The notes under the pieces: generated by a model
Database searches by the model: none
The model's input: only the letters and a program-made list of their open reading frames with translations
Told to the model about the DNA's origin: nothing
Origin: a virus
Length of the DNA stretch: 64,000 bases
Direction: 5' to 3' (one strand)
Virus record (IMG/VR): IMGVR_UViG_3300046328_000221
Span: 1-64,000 of that record
Shown: positions 1-10,541 of the stretch, piece after piece
Position numbering within the stretch: position 1 is the first letter of the stretch
Layout: every line of letters starts with the position of its first letter
Made by a program: the position numbers and the translations under genes

Positions 1-273
1 TCATTTGTTCTCTCCCTTGATAAGAGCAATCAGATGTTCTCCGTACCAGTTTTCAAAGTCTCCACAGGTGCAGCCAACAAAACCACCTTCAATACCTGCT
101 TCTGGCTCATGCGACTCCATCAGTCCAAAAATGCGTTCACGCTCATTGGTAATTGTCTTAGCTTTATATTTTGCTAACCAAAGGTCAAACATTCGGTTTG
201 CGTAAGTGCTATCTACTCTTTCGGCTGAGTATGCGTCACGCACATCTGCTGTTTTTGGTATAAGGTCACTCAT
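1..273 (-). CDS. hypothetical early protein (CxC motif; C-terminal LIALIKGENK shared with neighbour)
   Basis: ORF track; ATGA overlap with upstream ORF; tail ERIFGLME...LIKGENK resembles ERIIKLLE...LIKGETK of 270..518. Confidence 0.7.
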   Translation of the reverse strand: MSDLIPKTADVRDAYSAERVDSTYANRMFDLWLAKYKAKTITNERERIFGLMESHEPEAGIEGGFVGCTCGDFENWYGEHLIALIKGENK

Positions 274-518
274 TTTGTTTCTCCCTTGATAAGTTCAAGT
301 GCTAGGTTGATGCCGTCTTTAAGCGACCAAGCACCATCTTCTTCATAGTAGGCACCCTCAATGCTTTCTAAAAGTTTGATAATCCGCTCCTCGGCGTGTT
401 TCACACCTAACTGAAACTCTGATACCCCACAACATTCGCAAGGTTCGGTGAACTCTTTTGGTGGGTTATTGATGATGTTGTAAATGTGTGTGTCTTTGTT
501 GTTGTTATTTATACTCAT
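270..518 (-). CDS. hypothetical early protein (CECC motif)
   Basis: ORF track; overlapping starts/stops with neighbours. Confidence 0.7.
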   Translation of the reverse strand: MSINNNNKDTHIYNIINNPPKEFTEPCECCGVSEFQLGVKHAEERIIKLLESIEGAYYEEDGAWSLKDGINLALELIKGETK

Positions 519-736
519 TTCTTTTCCTCCGCTTTCCAGGTATCAATAAGGTCAATTGCCTCACAAAAACAAAAACCCTTTGTGTTGTGAGTTCCAATTG
601 TGCATTTGTTATTTTCTCGTAGCATTGCCATCAATTCCTCCTTGGCATACTCTGTGCCATTGAAAAACCCTGTATTGTATTCAGCCTCAATTGCTTTGCC
701 AATTACTTTGTTTTGTTCTTTTGTAAACTCAGACAT
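515..736 (-). CDS. hypothetical early protein
   Basis: ORF track; AAGGAG RBS upstream. Confidence 0.7.
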   Translation of the reverse strand: MSEFTKEQNKVIGKAIEAEYNTGFFNGTEYAKEELMAMLRENNKCTIGTHNTKGFCFCEAIDLIDTWKAEEKK

Positions 737-830
737 TTGTTTTCTCCTTACGGTAATCCATCCACTTGAAAAGCAGAATCAGCGGTGAAGCAAGGTATAG
801 CCCTGCAACCATTCCCCATAGAAATGTCAT
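729..830 (-). CDS. small membrane peptide (MTFLWGMVAGLYLASPLILLFKW...)
   Basis: Read manually; 33 aa, one hydrophobic helix; ATGA overlap with 827..967. Confidence 0.55.
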   Translation of the reverse strand: MTFLWGMVAGLYLASPLILLFKWMDYRKEKTNV

Positions 831-967
831 TCTGCAATCTCCTCTGGAAATAGAAAGTCCAAGAAACCCAATACTGCATCTTCTGCTAAGGCTTTATCTT
901 CTGGTGACTTCCAGTATGTCTTATTAATGTAATCGTATGCTTGTTCTGCTATTTGTTTTTCATTCAT
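827..967 (-). CDS. hypothetical early protein (46 aa, MNEKQIAEQAYD...)
   Basis: Read manually; preceded by ACCCTAAAAGAA leader motif and TGTCATAAT -10. Confidence 0.6.
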   Translation of the reverse strand: MNEKQIAEQAYDYINKTYWKSPEDKALAEDAVLGFLDFLFPEEIAE

Positions 968-1011
968 ATTGGGTTCCGTTCTTTTAGGGTTTATACTATT
1001 ATGACAGAGAC

Positions 1012-1530
1012 TTAGGCGTTTGTCAACTCTGATTTGAAAGAATTTAGATAAATTTCTGCGGTAGGTAGTTCATCTAAACTAAATGATTCCTCAAAGCCAT
1101 TCCACTTAGTAGTAAACTTACGTGTAGAGAAATCAATAGTATATACACCCTCACAGAATAGATCGTCATTCTCAAACTCTGATTCGTCCTGGAGAGGAAT
1201 AGTTGCATTAGAATAAACTAATACCCTCAAGATATCGCAGCCAGTATCTCTAGTTAGACTAGGATACATAATAGAAAAGTCTTGACCTTGCTCAAATGTC
1301 ATCATATCTTCATCATTTACAAATGGCTTAGAGAGTTCTGCAAGTTCTTCCTGTGTAGCAAATCTTGCCTTGACCAATGATTTCTCAATCTTATCAAGCA
1401 TCTTGTGTTCTGAAATGAAATCTAGAATCCTGGTTCCAGTATATGAAGGGTAGCCATCCCATTGGCCATACTGTGCAACACGAGTACGTCCAGTAGAGTC
1501 AATCACCTTAGTTAGATTGCGAGTTCCCAT
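1012..1530 (-). CDS. conserved phage protein (MGTR...YGQWDGYPSYTG type)
   Basis: ORF track; start moved to ATG at 1530 after AGAAAGG RBS; QWDGYP motif typical of phage early proteins. Confidence 0.75.
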   Translation of the reverse strand: MGTRNLTKVIDSTGRTRVAQYGQWDGYPSYTGTRILDFISEHKMLDKIEKSLVKARFATQEELAELSKPFVNDEDMMTFEQGQDFSIMYPSLTRDTGCDILRVLVYSNATIPLQDESEFENDDLFCEGVYTIDFSTRKFTTKWNGFEESFSLDELPTAEIYLNSFKSELTNA

Positions 1531-1649
1531 TGGAAACCTTTCTTTAGGGTTTTTTCGATACTCAATTCTCTCACAGATTCTGGGAAAAGTCAAGTACTAT
1601 CGTAATTGTTTTTTCTATCGTAATTATCTTATTATTATGTAAAGTGAGG

Positions 1650-1676
1650 CCGACCACATTCGATCAGCTTTGTCAA
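1650..1676 (-). repeat. TTGACA-N15-GGTCGG element E1
   Basis: plus strand CCGACC 1650-1655, 15 nt, TGTCAA 1671-1676. Confidence 0.85.
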
Positions 1677-1680
1677 TAGA

Positions 1681-1710
1681 AAAACCCCCAGAGTTTCCTC
1701 TGAGGGCTAA
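1681..1710 (-). terminator. intrinsic terminator
   Basis: minus strand CCCTCAGAG-GAAA-CTCTGGGGG then U-tract, just after stop of 1722..2738. Confidence 0.75.
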
Positions 1711-1721
1711 TCTATTTTTGA

Positions 1722-2738
1722 CTAAGCCATTACGACCTGACGAACAACTTTCATTAGGCGGTTCTTTTCAGCATTGGTCATTGGGTCAAAACCACTAGCA
1801 CTTGCCAAGATAGATTCGTTAGAACCCTTACGCCCATTGCGATACCAATCCAAGCGTTCCGTTAGAGCGTTATAAGCACCCCAAGCAGTTCCTGAAATGG
1901 TGTCGTTGAATTGACCAACATAAATGTCATTGAGCAAGTCAATCTTAGTTGCGTGTTTGGTGTTTGACGCTTTTGCGTTTTCATCTTTTGGAGCAGGATA
2001 AGCAAGTTCAACAATCTTGTCGAATTGTGCTTTGGTAATTTCTGTTTCAATCATCTCATTAGCCATAGCAGAAAACTCGTCAATGTATTTGTGAGCCAAG
2101 CCCAACGCTTCACGAGCAACAGCAATCTTGCCCTCTGCTGTCTGTGTGTGTCTAATCTTGAATGTCTGCTTAGGAGCGTTCTTGCCCTTTAGAGAAGTCA
2201 AAGCCAAGTTTAGAGTGTTAGCACAAACAACACGAACAGGAGTGATACTTGCCTGAATAGCAATCGAACCGTCGTGTGAAGTATTGACAAGCAAGTAGTT
2301 GTCAATCTTATCAGCAACGCCATTTGGGTCAAGGGTAATTGAATTGGTCAATGCGATAGCACCAAAGACAACACGCCCACCACGAATAGAGCCAGCAGTT
2401 TCCCAACGTCCACCACCGTCTAGCAGGTTATCACCAAACGAGAATAGGTCTTCGTTCTGTAATGGAACATAGCGTTCACCAACGACACCAAGAATGTCAT
2501 TTGTGCTACGGTCAAAAGGGTTAGTCCTAGTCACGAATGAATAGTTCTTGTCGCTGTTGAAACCCTCTGGAGTTTCTACGTCCTCAAGGCGAACGTTCCA
2601 ATCGTTTAGTTTTGCCAAAGACAACATCTGTGCTGTGTCTACCTCATCAGCAAAGACTGTTCCCAATCCATGCCAAGCAGGTTGGCGAAGTGAAGCAAAT
2701 GCTGTTTCGCCGTTTACTGTTTCTAAGTCGTGAGCCAT
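1722..2738 (-). CDS. DUF932-like phage/plasmid protein
   Basis: MAHDLET start; PAWHGLG, VGERYVPLQN, WETAGSIRGGRVVF, NTSHDGS, TPVRVVCANTL, GTAWGAYNALTE motifs. Confidence 0.85.
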   Translation of the reverse strand: MAHDLETVNGETAFASLRQPAWHGLGTVFADEVDTAQMLSLAKLNDWNVRLEDVETPEGFNSDKNYSFVTRTNPFDRSTNDILGVVGERYVPLQNEDLFSFGDNLLDGGGRWETAGSIRGGRVVFGAIALTNSITLDPNGVADKIDNYLLVNTSHDGSIAIQASITPVRVVCANTLNLALTSLKGKNAPKQTFKIRHTQTAEGKIAVAREALGLAHKYIDEFSAMANEMIETEITKAQFDKIVELAYPAPKDENAKASNTKHATKIDLLNDIYVGQFNDTISGTAWGAYNALTERLDWYRNGRKGSNESILASASGFDPMTNAEKNRLMKVVRQVVMA

Positions 2739-2780
2739 AGGAGCCAACTTTCTTTTTAGGGGTGAATGTTTAGTAAGACT

Positions 2781-2809
2781 ATTATCCCACGAACCACTGA
2801 CAATGTCAA
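2781..2809 (-). promoter_or_regulatory. sigma70-type promoter with internal TGTC box
   Basis: minus strand TTGACA-17nt-GATAAT, with TGTC 12 nt before the -10. Confidence 0.75.
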
Positions 2810-2854
2810 GCGTATTTAGATAATTATTTGGGGAAAAATAGATCGTGTCGTAAC

Positions 2855-2881
2855 TTGACATCTGATCCAAGATCTGGTCGG
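2855..2881 (+). repeat. TTGACA-N15-GGTCGG element E2
   Basis: TTGACA 2855-2860, GGTCGG 2876-2881. Confidence 0.85.
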
Positions 2882-2892
2882 CCCCGAAGGGG

Positions 2893-2920
2893 GGCCAGTT
2901 TTACATCATGGCCAGGATGT
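2893..2920 (-). ncRNA. candidate H-type RNA pseudoknot
   Basis: minus strand ACAUC-CU-GGCCA-U-GAUGU-AAAAC-UGGCC gives two interlocking 5-bp stems. Confidence 0.45.
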
Positions 2921-2929
2921 TTCATACCA

Positions 2930-3103
2930 CTATGAAAATAGTGGACGTGTTAGTTTTTCAAGGTTATCTAGTTTATCAATATACTCTTCAAGTACATCAC
3001 GCATGTACCCTGCACTAACGTGTGCACTGTGGCTTGCAATATATTCATCGTGAAGCTCCACAGAATATTGTCTAATTAGTTTATTTAGTTTACGTTTACT
3101 CAT
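2930..3103 (-). CDS. hypothetical early protein
   Basis: ORF track; start moved to MSKRKLN. Confidence 0.6.
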   Translation of the reverse strand: MSKRKLNKLIRQYSVELHDEYIASHSAHVSAGYMRDVLEEYIDKLDNLEKLTRPLFS

Positions 3104-3281
3104 CTTCTTCTTCCTCATCTGGAACCTCTTCAACATCAATAGAGACAACATCTTGATATGTGATATCGCTATCCATGCTGTCTCCCCATGATTCCCATGC
3201 TAGGGCTTCTGCTGCTTCTTTAGATTCCGCTTCAATCTCTCCAGCAAATTCAATTGTCATTTCAATATAAAACTTTGGCAT
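3096..3281 (-). CDS. small acidic early protein
   Basis: ORF track; EIEAESKEAAEALA motif common in small phage proteins. Confidence 0.7.
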   Translation of the reverse strand: MPKFYIEMTIEFAGEIEAESKEAAEALAWESWGDSMDSDITYQDVVSIDVEEVPDEEEEDE

Positions 3282-3484
3282 TAATCCATCTCTCCGTCGT
3301 AGTATTTGTGTGAACAGTCAACACACATCTTTAGTTCTTCAAACCATATGTCATGGTCAACAGGTGTTTGGCAATAGACACAAGGTCGTGTCTCTGTGTA
3401 TTTATATTCTTGGTCACCCTCGCAAATATCGCAAAAGGGATTACAGTCAAAGCCACCTTCGTGGACTGGGCATTCAATCATCAT
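3281..3484 (-). CDS. Cys-rich (Zn-binding) early protein, probably leaderless
   Basis: CPVH..CNPFCDIC..CVYC..CVDC; ATG 7 nt after TAGAAT -10. Confidence 0.7.
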   Translation of the reverse strand: MMIECPVHEGGFDCNPFCDICEGDQEYKYTETRPCVYCQTPVDHDIWFEELKMCVDCSHKYYDGEMD

Positions 3485-3515
3485 ACCCACAATTCTATCC
3501 TGAGCCTCTGACATT

Positions 3516-3704
3516 TTAGCAACTCCCATCTGTAGGAATACGTTCTTCTGGTACGCCCATCATACGCAATACAGTTTGAGTTCTTTCAATAACACCCTGT
3601 ATATAATCACCCATTGGGTCGTTTATGGAAAGGGTATCAAGTTCAGGAATCAATTCTTCAAGGTCAATAATCAACCTATTGATAATAGCCTCATTACTCA
3701 TCAT
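3516..3704 (-). CDS. hypothetical early protein
   Basis: ORF track; start shortened to MMSNEAI. Confidence 0.6.
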   Translation of the reverse strand: MMSNEAIINRLIIDLEELIPELDTLSINDPMGDYIQGVIERTQTVLRMMGVPEERIPTDGSC

Positions 3705-3873
3705 AGCCATGTCCGTTCTGTAGAATGTAAATAAATTCAAGGGCCTCAAGGAATCCTTCATTGTATTTTCTATCCATAGTGTGGTCTATGTCATAGCCAG
3801 ATAGTTCTTCATTGTTGACAGACATTGCTAAAGATAGACGAGCCAACTCAATTTGCTTTTCTAATTCATTCAT
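3694..3873 (-). CDS. hypothetical early protein, probably leaderless
   Basis: MNELEKQ start 7 nt after TACAAT -10. Confidence 0.6.
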   Translation of the reverse strand: MNELEKQIELARLSLAMSVNNEELSGYDIDHTMDRKYNEGFLEALEFIYILQNGHGYDE

Positions 3874-3904
3874 AGATACCATTGTAGTCATACCCTCTGA
3901 CATT

Positions 3905-4099
3905 TTAGTCCTCCCACTCAGATACATCTTGGCCATTCAAAACGGCATTGGCATAATCGTAGCGGTCGTTATCGCTCAGGGTACCTAGTAGTTCCATCTG
4001 CTCCTCAGTGAAAGCGTCGTGGTCAGCAATAATAATCTTGCCACCACCATAGTTGCCATCCTCAGAAAAGTACAAACCATCGTATTCAACATAAGCCAT
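3905..4099 (-). CDS. small acidic early protein
   Basis: ORF track; AAGGAG RBS. Confidence 0.7.
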   Translation of the reverse strand: MAYVEYDGLYFSEDGNYGGGKIIIADHDAFTEEQMELLGTLSDNDRYDYANAVLNGQDVSEWED

Positions 4100-4215
4100 T
4101 AGTTATTCTCCTTTACGCAATCGCATTCTTGAACCATTAGTTTACCATTGACCACTGACACTACACCAAACTCATTACAGGTTTCGCAAAAGTGGATAGA
4201 CAAATTGCCTTGCAT
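4099..4215 (-). CDS. small Zn-ribbon-like protein (CETC...CDC)
   Basis: start moved to MQGNLS after AGAAAGG RBS. Confidence 0.6.
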   Translation of the reverse strand: MQGNLSIHFCETCNEFGVVSVVNGKLMVQECDCVKENN

Positions 4216-4315
4216 AGGGGTTCCTTTCTTTATACCTCTATTGTATAACAGGGGTACGACATTTTGGGGAACGTAAAGGGCGTGTCTTAAAGTTGTTATT
4301 GTTTTGTTATCTGAG

Positions 4316-4342
4316 CCGACCACAAAATGGATCAGTTGTCAA
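4316..4342 (-). repeat. TTGACA-N15-GGTCGG element E3
   Basis: CCGACC 4316-4321, TGTCAA 4337-4342. Confidence 0.85.
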
Positions 4343-4364
4343 GCTGCCAAGATCAGGGCAAAAG

Positions 4365-4395
4365 AAAAACCCCTACCATTTCTGATAGGGGCTAA
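4365..4395 (-). terminator. intrinsic terminator, paralogous to 1681-1710
   Basis: minus strand GCCCCTATCA-GAAA-TGGTAGGGGT then U-tract; same AGATTAGCCC lead-in. Confidence 0.75.
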
Positions 4396-4406
4396 TCTTA
4401 TTTTAT

Positions 4407-4853
4407 TTAGATAAGGTCAATCACAGCAGAGTATGAACTTGCTGAAACTTCCTCTTGGGTAGTCATACGCAAGATACGCAAGTTGCGTTCTAGGATTTCC
4501 TTACGAGTTGTGTATTCACGACCAAAACTTTCTTTCTGATTTGGGCGTGTTGGTTCTGTTGGCTTGGTTGGGAAACCTAGCACATCAGTATCAAACTCAA
4601 CAGAGATAGAGTTGTAGCGGTATGAAGAGGTTAGACGAGCAGGTGAAGAACTATCAGTTCCAATGTTGTCAGGGTTGCTTAGGGCTTCCTTAGCCTTAGT
4701 CAATACCTCAGCCTCATACGCCTTTACTTCTTCCTTGTATGTCTTTACTGCCTCAGAGTAGTTAGCAACCTCTTCGTCAATCTTAGCAATAGACTTCTCA
4801 ATGTCAGCGATTAGAGATGAGGTTGGGATTTTTACAGACAGGGTTCTAGCCAT
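4407..4853 (-). CDS. coiled-coil early protein
   Basis: ORF track; ACCCCTAAAAGAAAG leader and TGTC promoter upstream. Confidence 0.8.
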   Translation of the reverse strand: MARTLSVKIPTSSLIADIEKSIAKIDEEVANYSEAVKTYKEEVKAYEAEVLTKAKEALSNPDNIGTDSSSPARLTSSYRYNSISVEFDTDVLGFPTKPTEPTRPNQKESFGREYTTRKEILERNLRILRMTTQEEVSASSYSAVIDLI

Positions 4854-5007
4854 AATTAGACTTCTTTCTTTTAGGGGTATTTGTTTATTACTTGATTATT
4901 GTATCAGAGGGGTCTGACATTTTAGTTGCTAGGTGAGAGCCTTACATCTACTTCTAGAATAACTCATCTTGTGCTTTGTAGAAACCTAACAAACTAAAAT
5001 TAGTTTA

Positions 5008-5154
5008 TTACTTTACAGTAGTCCAGCGGTCTTGTCCGTTCACCAAAAGGCGAACACGAGCAGAACCAGACTTGTTCTTTACGATTTCCTGAATTGTTCC
5101 TACAACGCCAGACTTAGCGGTGGTGAACTGTGAGCCAACAGTTAGAGTGTTCAT
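5008..5154 (-). CDS. small beta-barrel (SH3-like) protein MNTLTVGSQFTTAKSGVVGTIQEIV...RWTTVK
   Basis: Read manually; 48 aa; AGAAG RBS; downstream of TTGACA-17-TATAAT promoter. Confidence 0.7.
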   Translation of the reverse strand: MNTLTVGSQFTTAKSGVVGTIQEIVKNKSGSARVRLLVNGQDRWTTVK

Positions 5155-5228
5155 TTTTGCTTCTTTCCGATACAGAGTATCTTGTTTGCTAGTGATTTCT
5201 AGTTATTTACAACTTTTGTTGTATCTCT

Positions 5229-5257
5229 ATTATAGGGCTACCCTACGACATTGTCAA
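5229..5257 (-). promoter_or_regulatory. consensus sigma70 promoter with TGTC box
   Basis: minus strand TTGACA-ATGTCGTAGGGTAGCCC-TATAAT. Confidence 0.85.
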
Positions 5258-5325
5258 GTGTTTTGGCATAATTTCTTTTGTGGATTTTCACAAACTTTTT
5301 GGGGATTTTTTGTGCGTGTCGTAAG

Positions 5326-5352
5326 TTGACTGGGGATCAAGAATGTGGTCGG
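5326..5352 (+). repeat. TTGACT-N15-GGTCGG element E4
   Basis: TTGACT 5326-5331, GGTCGG 5347-5352. Confidence 0.85.
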
Positions 5353-5356
5353 CCCC

Positions 5357-5505
5357 CTATCGCCAATTAAAAATTACAGCAAGAATAATTATTCCAACTA
5401 GAATAAAGAATGGTCCTGCAAAAATTATGCAGCCTAAGTCCATTGCTCCTATTGCAGGATAATCACTATCGCTATTGTCAACACTACCCATAAAAAGTAC
5501 TCCAT
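5357..5505 (-). CDS. two tandem tiny hydrophobic peptides (5449..5505 MEYFLWVVLTIAIVIILQ; 5357..5443 MDLGCIIFAGPFFILVGIIILAVIFNWR)
   Basis: Read manually; co-oriented, each one transmembrane length; AGGAG before the second. Confidence 0.45.
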
Positions 5506-5506
5506 C

Positions 5507-5698
5507 CTATTTACCATTATCCCATACAACTTCTGAACAGTCAACACACTCAATTGCAATATTGATACCGCCATAAGTCACTGCGGTTAGGTCATGGTGA
5601 AAGTGTTCTTTTACACGTCCCTCTATCCAATCACTCTCATATCGCATACCTGCACTAAACACTTCTGGATTTTCTTGGTAGGCCTTCAACTTTTCCAT
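5507..5698 (-). CDS. hypothetical early protein (NIAIECVDCSEVV)
   Basis: ORF track; TAATG coupling to upstream gene. Confidence 0.7.
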   Translation of the reverse strand: MEKLKAYQENPEVFSAGMRYESDWIEGRVKEHFHHDLTAVTYGGINIAIECVDCSEVVWDNGK

Positions 5699-6219
5699 TA
5701 CTCTGCACTTCCTCTAATGATAATCCAAATAAGTGCCTGCATTGAGCGTGGTGTCATTCCAAATTCGAATGCAACCTTTTTTACTGCATTAGCCAATTCG
5801 TTATAGGTTGACTGATTAGGTGTTTTCTTTTCAATACCAACTGCTCTCAACATCCATACGTCAATTACTACGGCCTGCTCATCACCTGCAATAGCCTTAG
5901 CGAATGCATTAGTTTTCATTCCCTTTAGTGCACTGAATCCCATAGTCAAAGAATTGTTAGCCATAGTCATGTTGTTTTTGAATCCTGGTACATGTTCACC
6001 TAGTGAGAAACTAATAGCCTTAGTGACATTGGCAGACCAACGTTCACGAGGTGAGAATGCACTAACAACACTTGCACCAACTTCAAGATAGGTGTCTAGG
6101 TTCCTTGCAACTTCAAGTGCAACCTTTTCTGCGTCAACATACCATTTACTGGCCTGCTCTACTTGTCCAAAGGTTGCCTTGCTTACTAGTGCACGATAGA
6201 TTTCTACGTAGTTAGTCAT
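5698..6219 (-). CDS. conserved phage protein with SAFSP..W..N / KTNAF / VVIDVW motifs, possibly HhH-GPD glycosylase-related
   Basis: ORF track; VVIDVWMLR and C-terminal 'QALIW' resemble the HhH-GPD catalytic region; function inferred. Confidence 0.6.
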   Translation of the reverse strand: MTNYVEIYRALVSKATFGQVEQASKWYVDAEKVALEVARNLDTYLEVGASVVSAFSPRERWSANVTKAISFSLGEHVPGFKNNMTMANNSLTMGFSALKGMKTNAFAKAIAGDEQAVVIDVWMLRAVGIEKKTPNQSTYNELANAVKKVAFEFGMTPRSMQALIWIIIRGSAE

Positions 6220-6273
6220 GGTGACTTCTTTCTTTAGGGGTTGATAAGATAAGTTTACTACAGGGGTACGACA

Positions 6274-6396
6274 TTATAGGAATTCGAATGGATCCCGATC
6301 TTGGAATATTTCCTCAAAGTCATAGAGTGAGTACGCTTCTGGATTAGCGTAGTAGTCTTGCAAAGCTTCTTTTATTTCCTCTGCTTGTTCATCCAT
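6274..6396 (-). CDS. small acidic protein (40 aa)
   Basis: Read manually; GAGG RBS; stop abuts next TGTC promoter box. Confidence 0.6.
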   Translation of the reverse strand: MDEQAEEIKEALQDYYANPEAYSLYDFEEIFQDRDPFEFL

Positions 6397-6397
6397 G

Positions 6398-6697
6398 TTA
6401 GTATTCCTCTCCGCTTATGAATCCCTCAATACGAGTATTCTCAACAACCTGCATTGCGGTCACTTCAATACTTCCGTCACGATTACGAACTTGGAAGTCA
6501 CCAATTTTTGGCAGGGTAAGCATACGATAGTAGTCACCGTCATCATAGGCGTGAATCGCTTCAACACATACGTCAACCATTTCAATTGGAATAGGTGGAT
6601 AACAATTTCCTCTAAGGTGCATGCCAACTGCATCTCTCAAGGTCACGTTAGGGAATAGGTCATTGTCTTGAATCTCTGCTACAAAGTTGCTGCCCAT
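6398..6697 (-). CDS. hypothetical early protein (HLRGNCYPPIP)
   Basis: ORF track. Confidence 0.75.
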   Translation of the reverse strand: MGSNFVAEIQDNDLFPNVTLRDAVGMHLRGNCYPPIPIEMVDVCVEAIHAYDDGDYYRMLTLPKIGDFQVRNRDGSIEVTAMQVVENTRIEGFISGEEY

Positions 6698-6792
6698 TAG
6701 TATCCTGCCTTCTCTAGAATTGATAGAATTTGTTCAATAGTGTCGCTATCAAGGTTATCAATAGCCGCTTCGTTGATTACGTTTTCAAACAT
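6697..6792 (-). CDS. small acidic protein (31 aa)
   Basis: Read manually; TTGACA-17-TATACT promoter at 6824-6852. Confidence 0.6.
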   Translation of the reverse strand: MFENVINEAAIDNLDSDTIEQILSILEKAGY

Positions 6793-6838
6793 GCAACTCA
6801 TTTCTTTTGGGGTTATTAGTATTAGTATAAACTATTTG

Positions 6839-6991
6839 TTAGTAATTGTCAAGGGCCTTACGCTTATTTTCTGAGCGTGTCCCCTTGTATTTTTTAGGCA
6901 CGACAACTTGCTTCTTGCCAGCCTTTAGCATAGAGTGGAATAACGCTTGGCTCTCTGCCTTGCGTCTTGCTTCATTTCTTTTACCTAACAT
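6839..6991 (-). CDS. small basic protein (50 aa), probably leaderless
   Basis: Read manually; K/R-rich; ATG 6 nt after TAAGAT -10. Confidence 0.6.
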   Translation of the reverse strand: MLGKRNEARRKAESQALFHSMLKAGKKQVVVPKKYKGTRSENKRKALDNY

Positions 6992-7057
6992 ACAACTATC
7001 TTAGCATTACCCTATGACATTTTGGGAAATTGGGGCAAATTTCTTAATTAACGTAAT

Positions 7058-7107
7058 TTGACATTTGATCAAAAATGGGGCCGACCACACCTGCCAGCTT
7101 TTGTCAA
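7058..7107. repeat. element E5, double-armed: TTGACA-N17-CCGACC-N15-TGTCAA
   Basis: inverted TTGACA/TGTCAA arms around the asymmetric core. Confidence 0.85.
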
Positions 7108-7125
7108 GCCAGCAAGTGGGTGTGT

Positions 7126-7239
7126 CTAAAACGGTGGGGTATCTTTTTCAATCCAACCTGCCATTTTCCAAAGAATGTATCCCTGCATTATGTTGAAAGC
7201 CAAAGATAGAATTAGTGCTAGTGTTAGAATGTTTTCCAT
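7126..7239 (-). CDS. small membrane peptide (37 aa)
   Basis: Read manually; MENILTLALILSLAFNIMQGYILW. Confidence 0.55.
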   Translation of the reverse strand: MENILTLALILSLAFNIMQGYILWKMAGWIEKDTPPF

Positions 7240-7409
7240 TAGTTCCCCTTTACAGCATTACGGAATCGAATCTCATCAAAGCGTGAGTTATCATTTTTGA
7301 ACATAGAAACAAAATCACTAACCATTTTTGAAAATAATGCTGGGTGTGTTTTGTCGCTTGCGTAGTTTAGAATCTTTGCGGTTTCGACATAGTCTTTGCG
7401 TGTCATCAT
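7239..7409 (-). CDS. conserved small phage protein (MTRKDY...NSRFDEIRF)
   Basis: Read manually; MTRKDY and NxRFD motifs recur in phage early proteins; AAGGA RBS. Confidence 0.75.
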   Translation of the reverse strand: MMTRKDYVETAKILNYASDKTHPALFSKMVSDFVSMFKNDNSRFDEIRFRNAVKGN

Positions 7410-7421
7410 TATTTTCTATCC

Positions 7422-7574
7422 TTAGTTTTTGTGAGCGAGTGAAAAGGTAAAGTAGCCCTCAAAGTGTGGGCTTGGGATTTTGTGGTGAAACATAGGCATT
7501 AGGTTTAGGTTGTTAGCCATTAGACCCAATCCACCGCATACCTCGCAAGGTGTTAGTTCTTCATCTGAATACAT
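7422..7574 (-). CDS. small protein with CEVCGGLG motif
   Basis: Read manually; AAGGG RBS; TGTC promoter upstream. Confidence 0.55.
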   Translation of the reverse strand: MYSDEELTPCEVCGGLGLMANNLNLMPMFHHKIPSPHFEGYFTFSLAHKN

Positions 7575-7623
7575 AGGTTTTCCCTTCTTAGTTGTTTTTA
7601 GTTTAGCATTACCCTACGACATT

Positions 7624-7767
7624 TTAGAATGTCTTGTTTAGGTGTAGGTTCACCCATTTTTGCCACATAGGGCCAGGCATATCGTTAGGCTTTACCCCTG
7701 CGTGAATGACCTTTAGCATTTTGTTGTAAAAGTCTTTTTCTGATTCTGTCATTCTTGGCTTTGGCAT
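7624..7767 (-). CDS. hypothetical early protein (47 aa)
   Basis: Read manually; AGAAAGGG RBS; own TGTC promoter. Confidence 0.6.
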   Translation of the reverse strand: MPKPRMTESEKDFYNKMLKVIHAGVKPNDMPGPMWQKWVNLHLNKTF

Positions 7768-7819
7768 TAGTTGCCCTTTCTTTGTTTGTTAGTTTATTTT
7801 AGCAGAGGGGTCTGACATT

Positions 7820-7984
7820 TTAGCGGTAGCCATAGCCTAGGTATTCTGCGAAATCAACAGGGTCTAAGTCTAGGTAAGTGATAGCACTAGCCAACGGCAT
7901 TAGTCCGTCAAGTTCATCACAGGTAGGGCATACAACAGTATCGCTAGTGAAAACACCCTCGCAGTAAACACACATTTTATCCAT
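7820..7984 (-). CDS. Zn-ribbon protein (CVYC...CPTC)
   Basis: Read manually; GAAAGG RBS; own TGTC promoter. Confidence 0.65.
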   Translation of the reverse strand: MDKMCVYCEGVFTSDTVVCPTCDELDGLMPLASAITYLDLDPVDFAEYLGYGYR

Positions 7985-8108
7985 TAGTTTTCCTTTCATC
8001 TGATAGTTCTACATTACCATAGGGGTCTGACATTTATGGCACAAACACGCCTTTTTTCTTTGTAAGTTTCTACAAACTTTTTTGGAGGTTTCTTACAATG
8101 ATCTTAAG

Positions 8109-8129
8109 TTATCCACAGAGTTATCCACA
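8109..8129 (+). promoter_or_regulatory. tandem DnaA boxes
   Basis: TTATCCACA at 8109-8117 and 8121-8129, 3-nt spacer. Confidence 0.7.
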
Positions 8130-8132
8130 GGA

Positions 8133-8159
8133 CCGACCAGGTTTCCCTGGATTTGTCAA
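8133..8159 (-). repeat. TTGACA-N15-GGTCGG element E6
   Basis: CCGACC 8133-8138, TGTCAA 8154-8159. Confidence 0.85.
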
Positions 8160-8230
8160 TAGTCTCCCTCATAGATTGAATATTCCTCAGAGCCACAGCC
8201 ACAGCATGGACGGTCTTCGCACGAGCACAT
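8156..8230 (-). CDS. Cys-rich micro-peptide MCSCEDRPCCGCGSEEYSIYEGDY
   Basis: Read manually; GAAAGG RBS and own TGTC promoter. Confidence 0.6.
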   Translation of the reverse strand: MCSCEDRPCCGCGSEEYSIYEGDY

Positions 8231-8275
8231 AGTTTTCCTTTCGATTAAAATAAGATTAGCAGAGACATACGACAT

Positions 8276-8502
8276 TTAGTCGAATGCCCACTGGGAAGCA
8301 TACATCTCCCCAATCATCTCCTCGTGAGCAATCCGTGCCTGAGCACGGTCAGAAGCAGCCTGCTCCTCTGGGGTAAGGATTTCCTCCTCCCAGAAGTCAT
8401 CTAGGTCCCAACCGAAATCTTGTGCCATATCTTCCATTACTGCTCTCCTTCTGATAGAAATTCCTGAACATCTTCATCTGTAAAATCACCGTATCTAGCC
8501 AT
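8276..8502 (-). CDS. two coupled acidic micro-proteins (8437..8502, 21 aa; 8276..8437, 53 aa)
   Basis: Read manually; TAATG overlap; AAGGAG RBS; first ORF leaderless after TAAGTT -10. Confidence 0.55.
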
Positions 8503-8580
8503 AAGATAAACTTAGCACACACCTACGACAATTACAACACGACACGCCAGAATTGGGAGAAATTTTTAAAGCTTCTTAAC

Positions 8581-8629
8581 TTGACAAACTGTGATCTTTG
8601 GGGTCGGCTCCTTTCGGAGTTTTTGTCAA
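8581..8629. repeat. element E7, double-armed: TTGACA-N15-GGTCGG-N16-TGTCAA, with an internal CTCC-TTTC-GGAG hairpin
   Basis: direct reading. Confidence 0.85.
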
Positions 8630-8641
8630 ATCGACACGCCG

Positions 8642-9066
8642 TTAGAAGGGCAATCCATTTTTCTTTATGTCAATGACCATCTCAACTAAAAAGCCAATGG
8701 TTATGATTACGATTACTGTTTGAAAAATTGCGGTAAGCATTAGATTAGTTCCTTATCGTTGATTAGCATTATGTCAATGAGGGTGATTAGTTCCTCAAGT
8801 TCTGAGATAGGTAGTTTATTTTCATTCATAGCATTATCCTAACATAGAGGGCTGACAATTATAGCCAAGCCATTACTGAGAAAGTTCCTAGAGCGATAGC
8901 CCCAAGGGTAGCAAGCAAGTAGATCCACATAGCATTACCTTTCTTAGTTATTGTAAGTGTAGCAGGATACACAGACATTCTTGCCGTTATCCTTGATGAT
9001 TGTTAGAACACGACCTTCGCAAATCTCGCAACGGTCTGTCTTTGTTATTACCTTTAGTGAATTCAT
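8642..9066 (-). CDS. four micro-ORFs (8944..9066 CEIC/CVSC Zn-ribbon; 8859..8930 TM peptide; 8740..8829; 8642..8740 TM peptide)
   Basis: Read manually; RBSs or leaderless starts; TGTC promoters between them. Confidence 0.55.
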
Positions 9067-9164
9067 CTGGAATTCCTTTCTTTATCTATACCTATAACCT
9101 ATCACAGGGGTATGACAATGTCAAGAGTATTTGAGGAAATTTTTATAACAAACATATAACATAG

Positions 9165-9185
9165 TTATACACACCCTGTGGATAA
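9165..9185. promoter_or_regulatory. inverted DnaA box pair
   Basis: TTATACACA-ccc-TGTGGATAA. Confidence 0.7.
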
Positions 9186-9187
9186 GT

Positions 9188-9212
9188 CCGGCCAGGATCC
9201 TGAAAAAGTCAA
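9188..9212 (-). repeat. variant element E8 (TTGACT-N13-GGCCGG)
   Basis: CCGGCC 9188-9193, AGTCAA 9207-9212; followed by ATCGACACGCCG as at E7. Confidence 0.6.
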
Positions 9213-9369
9213 ATCGACACGCCGTGTTTTATGAAAGATTAATTAAGTTAACATTAAATAACGAAATGATAACAAAGGGTCAAAACAGGGCAAAAAGGGC
9301 AATAAATGTCAGACCCCCCTGTTAGTGTATTAGTAGATAAAGAAATATATAAAAGAAATGAGGTCAGAA

Positions 9370-9516
9370 ATGACAGTTAAGATTTACAAGACAGATGGTT
9401 CATTCTACTACCAGTGGTTGGACCGTGATGAAGTTAGAATGCTACCTCGCATTACTAAGCAATACACTAGCCTAACAAAGGTTGGACTTATCAAGGGGTT
9501 CAGTATCTCTCGCTAA
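9370..9516 (+). CDS. hypothetical early protein (48 aa)
   Basis: Read manually; GAGG RBS; TGTC promoter at 9305. Confidence 0.6.
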   Translation: MTVKIYKTDGSFYYQWLDRDEVRMLPRITKQYTSLTKVGLIKGFSISR

Positions 9517-9567
9517 TTGTCAGGGGTATCTGATACAGTATTACTAAATAGATAAGGATAAAACATT

Positions 9568-9765
9568 ATGGATAAAACACTAGGTCAGATTACAGATGAA
9601 ATTTACAACGCTGTAAAAAACTTTCACACTGCCTCTATGGGCAACGATAGAAAAGAAATAGAAAATGCTCAGGCAGAATACGCAGGTATGATTTCTATCT
9701 ATGGAACTAAAGCAGTTGCCGATGTAGTAGAATTTTACAACGAAACAGTTATTAGAAGGGCTTAG
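9568..9765 (+). CDS. hypothetical early protein
   Basis: ORF track; AAGGA RBS; TGTC promoter at 9516. Confidence 0.7.
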   Translation: MDKTLGQITDEIYNAVKNFHTASMGNDRKEIENAQAEYAGMISIYGTKAVADVVEFYNETVIRRA

Positions 9766-9768
9766 AAA

Positions 9769-9855
9769 ATGATTACACTTACATTCGAAACTTGGGAAGA
9801 GTTTGACCAAGCAATCGCAGGTATTGCTAGTTTAGAAATTGAGATAACAAAATAA
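9769..9855 (+). CDS. micro-protein MITLTFETWEEFDQAIAGIASLEIEITK
   Basis: Read manually; AAGGG RBS. Confidence 0.55.
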   Translation: MITLTFETWEEFDQAIAGIASLEIEITK

Positions 9856-10013
9856 AAGACTTGGGGGGCGTATAGTCCCTGAGTGCGGACTATAATTTTT
9901 GATAATTGTCTGCCAGATCGTGTATCATACATCAGCTCTACATTCACAGATTTAGTAATTTTCATTTCTGAAAACATATTCAGATTTCTGAATTTCTATG
10001 GTATACTATATAC

Positions 10014-10541
10014 ATGAAGCAATGTACAAAATGTCATCAAACAAAAGATTTTTCAGAATTTCACAAAAAATCTAAACTTCCAGGTGGACTAGCATATCAC
10101 TGTAAATCCTGTGTACGTGAATATGATATGAAAGAGCATGATCCTAAAAGAGTTATGCCTAGAAAGCTTAAAGCTGATTTAGTTCATTGTCGTAAATGTA
10201 ATCAATATTTAGATAAGTCAAAATTTTGGGGGCAGCTAACATATTGCAAAGAATGTTCTAAACTAGTAGGACATTCTGCAAACCTAAAAAGATTTGGCCT
10301 TACAGTAGAAGACTATATTGACCTAGAAAGATCACAAAATGGTGTATGTGCTATTTGCAAAGATCCAGAAATAAATAAAAGACGTTTATCTGTTGATCAT
10401 AATCATTCATGTTGTCCAGGTAGTGGTTCTTGTGGAAAATGTATTAGAGGACTTTTGTGTTCAAATTGCAATACATTTCTTGGAAATGCCAAAGACAATG
10501 TTGAAATATTAAAAGCTGCTATAAGATATTTGCAAAAGTAA
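10014..10541 (+). CDS. Endonuclease VII-family nuclease with N-terminal Zn fingers (probable homing endonuclease)
   Basis: CAIC...LSVDHNH...IRGLLCSNCNTFLG motif; two CxxC repeats; leaderless TGGTATACT promoter. Confidence 0.85.
   Translation: MKQCTKCHQTKDFSEFHKKSKLPGGLAYHCKSCVREYDMKEHDPKRVMPRKLKADLVHCRKCNQYLDKSKFWGQLTYCKECSKLVGHSANLKRFGLTVEDYIDLERSQNGVCAICKDPEINKRRLSVDHNHSCCPGSGSCGKCIRGLLCSNCNTFLGNAKDNVEILKAAIRYLQK

Follow-up and report, generated by a model that had tools for sequence, protein, structure and literature searches.

The locus described here raises the question of why a phage should keep short palindromic words out of one part of its genome while retaining them at conserved elements between the genes of that same part. 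The window (the whole stretch of DNA analysed, 64,000 nucleotides, one strand) is the first 64 kb of the 94,045-bp IMG/VR virus record IMGVR_UViG_3300046328_000221, which has a G+C content of 39% and an 831-bp repeat at its ends; no near-identical phage record was found. An initial annotation had reported that GATC and AGCT are scarce in positions 1–9860, except around repeated elements with a GGTCGG core (E1 to E8), and had suggested that this DNA enters the host first, the elements being either shielded zones or deliberately kept methylation sensors or restriction baits.

A recount agreed exactly with the earlier hand counts: positions 1–9860 contain 15 copies of GATC (at 1161, 1662, 2841, 2864, 2871, 4330, 4351, 5335, 6291, 6297, 7067, 8100, 8593, 8922 and 9196), seven of AGCT (160, 1666, 3054, 4342, 6364, 7096 and 8570) and one of CCGG. 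The last, at 9188 in the core of E8, had been noticed as the only one in this region and proved to be the only one in the whole 94-kb record. GATC occurs 7–9 times per 5 kb in 1–10 kb versus approximately 22 times elsewhere, and AGCT 4 times versus approximately 24. Two-rate maximum-likelihood change-point analysis placed a depleted block of 12.3 kb between record position 90,800 and position 9,900, running across the contig end with its 831-bp repeat. The combined density of GATC, AGCT and TTAA is 3.65/kb in this block and 16.2/kb outside. The densities and the change point thus confirm that both words are scarce in the early region and common beyond about 9.9 kb; the right edge given for the region was correct, but the domain starts at record 90,800 and not at position 1.

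Codon use and strand bias were corrected for by shuffling synonymous codons within the block genes on the coding strand. The depletion survives this correction, with z values of −5 to −8: TTAA, a word not mentioned in the initial annotation, is found 7 times versus 46.6 expected (z −8.2), AGCT 6 times versus 37.2 (z −6.3) and GATC 8 times versus 27.7 (z −5.0), and no other among the 135 tetramer classes is depleted as strongly. In the same analysis the mean z was −3.1 for palindromes and +0.2 for non-palindromes, and the observed/expected ratios in the 56 kb of other genes were 1.12 (GATC), 0.89 (AGCT) and 0.88 (TTAA). All 16 of the 4-bp palindromes fall below the second-order Markov expectation in the block, and palindromes account for 13 of the 14 most depleted among 136 tetramer classes. 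The reported scarcity of GATC and AGCT therefore stands, but its scope was too narrow, since TTAA and the entire class of 4-bp palindromes are also low. Palindromes of 6 bp are approximately halved in the block (8.0 versus 14.8 per kb). Interrupted control words occur there at normal frequency (GANTC 1.14, AGNCT 1.01, TTNAA 0.82), so that only contiguous words with dyad symmetry, i.e. Type II-style targets, carry the signal.

Other palindromes are avoided throughout the genome. CCGG (1 copy), GCGC (1 copy) and CGCG (none) are nearly absent over 94 kb, the codon-aware expectation in the 56 kb of genes being 48, 44 and 22, respectively; TCGA, GTAC and ACGT are also low across the whole genome. 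Avoidance of CCGG, GCGC and CGCG is thus genome-wide, whereas GATC, AGCT and TTAA are normal outside the block.

The change points coincide with the ends of a gene block, whose features within the window and at its right border are as follows:

1–9900, minus strand: window part of the depleted block, small, mostly leftward genes in cassettes (change point, codon-shuffle and Markov depletion, map of open reading frames, ORFs)
9871–9899, plus strand: hairpin with T-run at the right edge of the block; the first outside sites are at 9916 and 9934
10,014–10,541, plus strand: Endonuclease VII gene, the first gene beyond the block, rich in GATC and AGCT; its position matches that of the HNH gene of Streptomyces phage Jay2Jay

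The small rightward ORFs at 9358–9855 (plus strand) stop at the plus-strand terminator 9871–9899, which suggests a block built of two units that diverge around 9.07–9.36 kb, as in the first-step region of T5/BF23.

The left bound lies outside the window and adjoins a non-coding AT-rich stretch (record 89,950–90,750) with six (GA)TCGTAATG repeats and DnaA-like boxes. A promoter-like sequence is duplicated in tandem there, and a strong promoter (TTGACT-17-TATAAT) points rightward. This region could be an origin, an analogue of an injection stop, or a terminus. In four relatives the contig ends in the corresponding region left of the block, and the contig of another (G004) is broken within the block. 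A further relative (G003, 110.9 kb, classed as linear) has end repeats of approximately 1.3 kb that are only about 80% identical, both being copies of the AT-rich DnaA-box region. In the present record, the 831-bp end repeat (window 1–831 = record 93,215–94,045) starts exactly at a stop codon amid paralogous small genes; it looks like an assembly overlap and not a true genome end, and, because it lies inside the depleted domain, it probably marks no biological boundary. The segment from 90.8 to 93.2 kb contains an HNH_3 endonuclease gene (record 92,644–93,042, minus strand) that carries five of the seven GATC, AGCT and TTAA sites of this segment. The gene looks like a recent insert whose sites are still unpurged.

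Comparison with other phages placed the record near cultured actinophages. Its DnaE-type polymerase has 54–55% identity, and its DUF932 protein approximately 50% identity, to those of Streptomyces phages of clusters BE/BK, with which it also has a common gene order (small leftward genes, nuclease, portal, protease, capsid, tape measure, tail, helicase/primase, polymerase). A WhiB gene scoring over the Pfam cut-off is located at record 75,235–75,408 and indicates an actinobacterial host. Because of these identities, the gene order and the WhiB gene, the record is assigned to an uncultured low-G+C actinophage related to the Stanwilliamsviridae, a status based on gene order, synteny and hallmark proteins. 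Synteny links the block to the 11,438-bp direct terminal repeat of Jay2Jay, in which DUF932 lies 1.6 kb from the end, the small genes are leftward and an HNH gene is present at the inner end; the Endonuclease VII gene sits where this HNH gene ends the Jay2Jay repeat on its inner side. A terminal repeat of approximately 11 kb has been described in cluster BE phages (PMC5764925). By analogy, the synteny suggests that a long terminal repeat may have been collapsed in the present record. Jay2Jay (positions 1–66000) contains no GATC, although about 215 copies would be expected; in cultured cluster BE phages the purging of this word therefore extends over the genome.

Uncultured relatives were found with the DUF932 gene as the anchor:

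1722–2756, minus strand: DUF932 gene (PF06067, phrog_1221)
2781–2809, minus strand: host-type promoter of the DUF932 cassette (TTGACA, 17 nt, GATAAT, TG before the −10 box), kept in relatives

The DUF932 ORF reaches a TTG at 2870, and homology begins near residue 39, the promoter being at 2781–2809. A DUF932 protein related to the query is encoded by more than 400 IMG/VR loci, the best 80 of which are 65–87% identical. Twenty-nine loci had enough flanking DNA and were analyzed over 20 kb each; in most of them the depletion is likewise limited to the block. Seven of the 29 loci have no GATC anywhere in their 20 kb, and in 20 of the 22 others the density of this word in the block is less than half of that outside (median ratio 0.36). 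The corresponding figures for AGCT are 13/29 and 14 of 16 (median 0.35). TTAA is absent from none of the 29 loci and is block-depleted in 18 (median 0.29), and CCGG is missing from 26/29. The pooled Markov ratios inside and outside the block (27 loci) were 0.35/0.83 for AGCT, 0.41/0.92 for GATC and 0.48/0.96 for TTAA; 11 of the 16 palindromes are lower inside than outside, the exceptions being the four G+C-only palindromes and TCGA. Loci with and without GATC, AGCT or GCGC are intermingled on the DUF932 gene tree, which may not mirror the genome tree, phage genomes being mosaic. The palindromes avoided in the family thus turn over rapidly and by lineage, which fits host restriction enzymes whose specificity varies.

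These data bear on two alternative explanations. According to the first, there is no selection on sites, and the block simply has a different composition, codon use or strand bias, or was recently acquired from a lineage lacking GATC and AGCT. The block genes do lie on the strand opposite to the rest, with reversed skews, and relatives free of GATC or AGCT do exist. This candidate was nevertheless rejected, and we regard it as hardly credible, since it is already contradicted by (i) the codon-preserving coding-strand shuffle, after which z remains at −5 to −8, (ii) the equal G+C content of the block and the remainder of the genome, (iii) TTAA, which is purged in blocks only, with no lineage lacking it genome-wide, (iv) the closest relatives (87% DUF932 identity), which are also depleted within the block only, and (v) the undepleted spacers of the same block, described below. 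According to the second, the block avoids an early nuclease of the phage itself that degrades host DNA (cf. the A1-dependent degradation by T5); the phage DNA already in the cell would have to be free of its targets, while the remaining DNA enters or replicates after the nuclease has been switched off. The match between the bounds of the depletion and the early module, the HNH and Endonuclease VII genes in the block and at its border, and the T5 literature, which raises this very problem for first-step DNA (PMC10644984, 10.1101/866236), are in agreement with such a model. With no fewer than three unrelated palindromes purged and the full set of 16 low, one nuclease is insufficient as an explanation; the purged set differs among close relatives and is sometimes genome-wide, which varying host enzymes fit better, and the HNH gene of the block carries most of the sites of its segment, as a recent insert would. 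We therefore consider avoidance of the phage's own nuclease very unlikely.

The depletion is not uniform within the block. Of positions 1–9860, 8,274 bp were assigned to promoter-to-stop units and 1,586 bp to eight inter-cassette spacers, the latter listed here, all unstranded:

1594–1721: spacer 1, between the upstream gene's stop and the −35 box of the next promoter, not depleted; terminator at 1683–1708
2810–2929: spacer 2
4286–4406: spacer 3; terminator at 4368–4393
5258–5356: spacer 4; promoter at 5229–5257
7036–7238: spacer 5
8056–8275: spacer 6
8540–8943: spacer 7
9067–9357: spacer 8, apparently a divergent control region (ORF map)

In the units, GATC, AGCT and TTAA together reach 1.33/kb; the spacers contain 17.0/kb, compared to 16.2/kb in the rest of the genome. 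Outside the block, sites are equally dense in coding and non-coding DNA. The blocks of the relatives contain 0.41 GATC/kb in ORFs versus 3.04/kb between ORFs. The words that are purged genome-wide are also missing from non-coding DNA, which is therefore purgeable when selection demands. The undepleted spacers fit either shielding of their sites or cuts that are harmless between cassettes: the near identity of the spacer and genome densities favours neutrality of the spacers, while the CCGG cores and the fact that the elements are enriched in GATC (see below) favour a positive role or protection.

A palindrome knot is present at 6272–6300, directly upstream of the TATAAT box that precedes the DUF7178 gene. 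It comprises GGATCC, TTCGAA, GAATTC and two GATC sites, i.e. two of the four GATC that are distant from any element.

The restriction of the depletion to promoter-to-stop units, the untranscribed spacers being normal, is what would be expected if selection acted on early messenger RNA (mRNA), with GAUC, AGCU and UUAA avoided to escape RNA pairing or a host ribonuclease. The shortage of self-complementary tetramers as a class, with interrupted forms at normal frequency, is the signature of dimeric DNA enzymes; moreover, other messages of the same phage are unpurged, and in sister lineages the non-coding DNA has lost these words too. Selection on mRNA is consequently a highly improbable explanation.

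The TTGACW-N14-TGGTCGG elements are limited to 1650–9212, plus one variant (GGTCGG-N-TTGTCAA) at record 90,733, after the AT-rich region. Those of the window are:

1650–1676, minus strand: E1, TTGACA-N14-TGGTCGG, with GATC 1662 and AGCT 1666 in its spacer
2855–2881, plus strand: E2, with GATC 2864 and 2871 in its spacer; upstream of the DUF932 promoter and reversed relative to the gene
4316–4342, minus strand: E3, with GATC 4330, and AGCT 4342 at its edge
5326–5352, plus strand: E4, with GATC 5335
7057–7107, unstranded: E5, two head-to-head TTGACA arms with one common GGCCGACC core; GATC 7067 and AGCT 7096
8133–8159, minus strand: E6, no internal GATC, the nearest being at 8100
8581–8607, plus strand: E7, with GATC 8593
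9188–9212, minus strand: E8, a variant with the core GGCCGG and a 12-nt spacer; CCGG 9188 and GATC 9196

Eight of the 15 GATC sites lie within these 27-nt elements, which make up 2.4% of the region (p = 6e-10). The clustering noted in the initial annotation was reproduced, with 11/15 GATC (p = 3e-9) and 4/7 AGCT (p = 0.002) no more than 40 nt from an element and at least one GATC in every island. TTAA behaves in the same way (10/16, p = 1.5e-7). GGCC also clusters within this distance (7/15, p = 1.5e-4) because it is part of the GGTCGGCC core. No clustering at elements was detected for ATAT, TATA, CTAG, CATG, GTAC, ACGT or TGCA. In one relative (L009), 7/12 GATC are found near GGTCGG cores (p = 9e-7); where such cores exist, GATC clusters at them.

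In alignments of the region upstream of DUF932 in relatives, the element is located 60–110 nt beyond the promoter, past the hairpin that ends the preceding gene, and occurs in either orientation, adjoining GTTACGACAC-like boxes. The elements were also considered as ordinary sigma-70/SigA promoters, but this was rejected: no −10 hexamer TAnnnT was found 16–18 nt after their −35 (TCGGCC or a similar sequence is present there), they occur in both orientations relative to genes, and true promoters (e.g. TTGACA-17-GATAAT) lie 60–110 nt away. Avoidance of GGTCGG outside the block was not significant (1 observed versus 3–5.5 expected). The island core is uniform within each genome and differs between lineages (L010, L012, L018, L025, L027, L048; L060, L069, L083), being GGTCGGCC here, of the GCGCCC type in some and GCCGGC or GGCCGG in others. 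Such concerted change suggests a phage-encoded reader of the core or gene conversion. The clade formed by L060, L069 and L083 has 7–8 CCGG per locus, all within the block, all but about two of them non-coding and none outside, a pattern that parallels the lone CCGG in E8.

Two pairs of DnaA boxes are also associated with element cores:

8109–8129, plus strand: two perfect DnaA boxes TTATCCACA, 3 bp apart, adjoining the E6 core
9165–9185, unstranded: inverted DnaA-box pair (TTATACACA, 3 bp, TGTGGATAA), adjoining the E8 core

Pairs with a 3-bp spacing are present in relatives as well. The window contains no excess of DnaA boxes (8 observed versus 9.7 expected), and only these two pairs stand out.

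The leftover sites are thus concentrated in or next to conserved motifs that resemble protein-binding sites. This would be expected if any cut in the first-entering DNA were lethal, as it is in T5, so that the whole molecule is under selection, and if the sites in the spacers were shielded by proteins bound on entry, for which host RNA polymerase on TTGACA-N14-TG, DnaA on the box pairs and a co-injected phage protein reading the core are candidates. The lineage-wise change of the core (GGTCGGCC, GCGCCC type, GCCGGC) suggests a phage-encoded reader, and the confinement of CCGG in L060, L069 and L083 to mainly non-coding islands of the block, like the sole CCGG of the present phage in E8, points in the same direction. 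Sites occur, however, throughout the 100–400-bp spacers at the genome-average density and not just under the motifs. Lineages that purge GATC genome-wide have also purged it from the islands, which are therefore not fully safe. In addition, no binding protein was identified, and the CCGG case comprises three related loci. On balance, shielding is an unlikely explanation of the spacer sites.

It was also proposed that the island sites are kept deliberately, either because their methylation state distinguishes incoming from replicated DNA or because they titrate an enzyme. Enrichment of GATC in the 14-nt spacer speaks for this: besides the 8/15 copies found here, GATC is present at varying offsets in 14 of 25 distinct spacers of GATC-bearing relatives, versus 3.7% by chance, and the element upstream of DUF932 retains two GATC 6–7 nt apart in five relatives although the surrounding letters differ. 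The word is nevertheless dispensable, since GATC-free and AGCT-free lineages retain the elements without these sequences; E6 (one of the eight elements) and the minus-oriented arm of E5 also have no GATC. Searches of the 94-kb record for the three main families of DNA methyltransferases (PF02086, PF01555, PF00145; PF05869 and other families were not searched) gave no match, so self-methylation is not what protects the site-rich 81 kb; a host enzyme that methylates GATC is possible. GATC signalling of the Dam/SeqA type is not known as a feature of Actinobacteria, the phylum to which the WhiB gene assigns the host. The proposal of methylation sensors or restriction baits is accordingly unsupported, with no N6/N4, Dam-type or C5 methyltransferase in the record and the elements kept in GATC-free relatives; we rate it as very improbable.

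The explanation that we favour, with modest confidence, is that early DNA which is exposed first avoids restriction sites, with selection working cassette by cassette. The restriction-avoidance part of the initial annotation gained indirect support from the specificity for palindromes, the robustness to codon and strand bias, the conservation among relatives and the purges of the same words over 20 kb in sister lineages. The 12.3-kb block would be a host-takeover (pre-early) module composed of small genes that each have a host-type promoter and a terminator of their own, and it is probably the first DNA to be exposed and read because its position is homologous to that of the long terminal repeat of cultured relatives; by this analogy it is plausible that the block enters or acts first. 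The hosts of the family would carry enzymes cutting 4-bp palindromes, and we infer that these are the selective agent. The sites of enzymes that the phage is unable to counter would be lost genome-wide, as may be the case for CCGG, GCGC and CGCG here and for GATC and/or AGCT in sister lineages. For GATC, AGCT and TTAA, the phage apparently has an answer that is effective only after early expression: the remaining DNA may enter late, as it does in T5, or an anti-restriction protein may be made early; sites would then be removed only from units transcribed beforehand. Avoidance limited to the block can help only if the remaining genome is protected while the block is exposed. Selection would act on each promoter-to-stop cassette and not on the molecule, the spacers keeping the genome-average site density and some of their sites apparently being built into the conserved TTGACA-N14-TGGTCGG elements. 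We infer that cuts or sites in the spacers are harmless owing to the spare copy of the terminal repeat or to protein occupancy. A more speculative extension, possible but rather doubtful, is that the first-entering repeat copy need not survive as DNA and counts only as a collection of autonomous cassettes, a spare copy arriving later, so that junction sites are tolerated, and perhaps exploited as break-and-rejoin points for shuffling, with the core read by a co-evolving protein.

Several observations weigh against restriction avoidance acting on cassettes. The limits of the spacers were drawn manually once the sites were known, with ORF stops and predicted −35 boxes as guides; an automatic partition of the block based on ORFs only agrees with them but gives a weaker difference (1.7 versus 7.8/kb). 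GATC in the element spacers is approximately 15-fold over chance, and mere tolerance is therefore no explanation for it. The 831-bp end repeat of the record lies within the block and not at its edges. Jay2Jay has no depletion limited to its repeat, except for a weak TTAA signal (4 versus 11). The loss of palindromes in T5 first-step DNA is mild (0.83 versus 0.97, compared to 0.54 in the present block), so the paradigm itself shows the pattern less strongly. Finally, block proteins matched no known anti-restriction family in Pfam and PHROG scans of 21 ORFs or in an Atlas look-up of a 141-aa acidic protein.

These scans of the 21 block ORFs returned just DUF932, DUF7178, HNH_3 and a weak match to phrog_20551 (function unassigned). 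The only window protein of the block with a family match other than DUF932 is encoded by the following gene:

5698–6219, minus strand: DUF7178 gene

No literature on the function of DUF932 was found. Homologues of T5 A1, A2 and Dmp were not among the Pfam/PHROG matches of the 21 ORFs, a direct search for A1 or A2 not having been made. Several genes, all on the minus strand, encode small acidic proteins with an isoelectric point (pI) near 4.1 and acidic residues 4- to 8-fold over basic ones (3905–4099, 6274–6396 and 8276–8437; record 91,691–92,026 and 92,150–92,575). These had no functionally informative family match and could be DNA mimics. Strong host-type promoters were rejected as a marker of the block, as they also occur at 50–55, 71–75 and 83–91 kb.

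The results provide a strong and clean signal over a whole class of 4-bp targets in an abundant group of uncultured actinophages. The existence of two avoidance states for one and the same word, genome-wide in some sister lineages and block-limited in others, may mark those host enzymes that each phage is able to neutralise after early expression. Selection appears to guard each early gene unit and not the integrity of the molecule, a split that the classical model does not predict. The bounds of such blocks offer a sequence-only locator of the first-exposed module, probably the terminal repeat, in metagenomic phage genomes.

Among known systems, Streptomyces cluster BE phages (Stanwilliamsviridae, Jay2Jay) are similar in gene order from DUF932 through the DnaE-type polymerase. 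The present genome differs from that of Jay2Jay in size (94 versus 133 kb), in G+C content (39% versus 50%) and in that Jay2Jay is purged of GATC everywhere and not regionally.

In the host-takeover module of Bacillus phage SPO1, approximately 26 small early genes, some for acidic DNA-mimic-like proteins, are located in a long terminal repeat (PMC6873191, PMC8208478, PMC10531801). The block resembles this module in its many small proteins with pI near 4.1. The DNA of SPO1 is modified with hydroxymethyluracil, and we know of no report of block-limited site avoidance in this phage.

In Murciavirus, the location of restriction motifs in first-injected DNA decides sensitivity to a Type I system, and the region is variable and encodes anti-defence genes (PMC12455610). 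The position of sites in the presumed first DNA is a theme shared with this phage and with the T7-like leading region. Murciavirus is a podovirus facing Type I enzymes with few long motifs, whereas here the whole 4-bp class is purged over 12 kb in a siphovirus-type genome.

Rusinov et al. 2018 (PMC6286503) described how phages avoid restriction sites and palindromes across their genomes; no mention of early or injected regions was found in that paper. The near absence of CCGG, GCGC and CGCG over 94 kb, and that of GATC from 66 kb of Jay2Jay, follow this pattern; by contrast, GATC, AGCT and TTAA are shunned in one module only and, within it, only in gene units.

The closest parallel concerns T5/BF23, whose terminal repeat constitutes the first-step-transfer DNA, with restriction, CRISPR and similar nucleases acting only via targets located there (PMC10644984, 10.1101/866236). 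T5-like phages also contain DnaA boxes paired with a 3-bp spacing in the injection-stop/first-step region (10.1101/866236). Like T5/BF23, the present phage has a block of approximately 10 kb of small early-type genes with host-type promoters that is the counterpart of a long terminal repeat in its kin, DnaA-box pairs with a 3-bp spacing and nuclease genes at the border. Unlike T5, it has an actinobacterial host, and no sequence homology was detected between them. Two-step injection is a T5 feature, to which the block is linked by sequence parallels only (the DnaA-box pairs and the AT-rich region at 89.95–90.75 kb). T5 first-step DNA has 5.8 GCGC/kb, the word of the nick consensus, versus 0.85/kb in the next 40 kb, and 2.95 CGCG/kb versus 0.58/kb. 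As in T5-type first-step DNA, restriction targets are scarce in the block and present elsewhere, but the effect is stronger here: 6-bp palindromes, halved in the block, are not reduced in T5 first-step DNA, and no split between units and spacers has been reported for T5. If cuts at the junctions are indeed harmless thanks to a spare copy, this would represent a unit-of-selection rule for anti-restriction not described for T5 or T7. The pattern is a variant of the T5-type rule, the new part of which would be selection per cassette.

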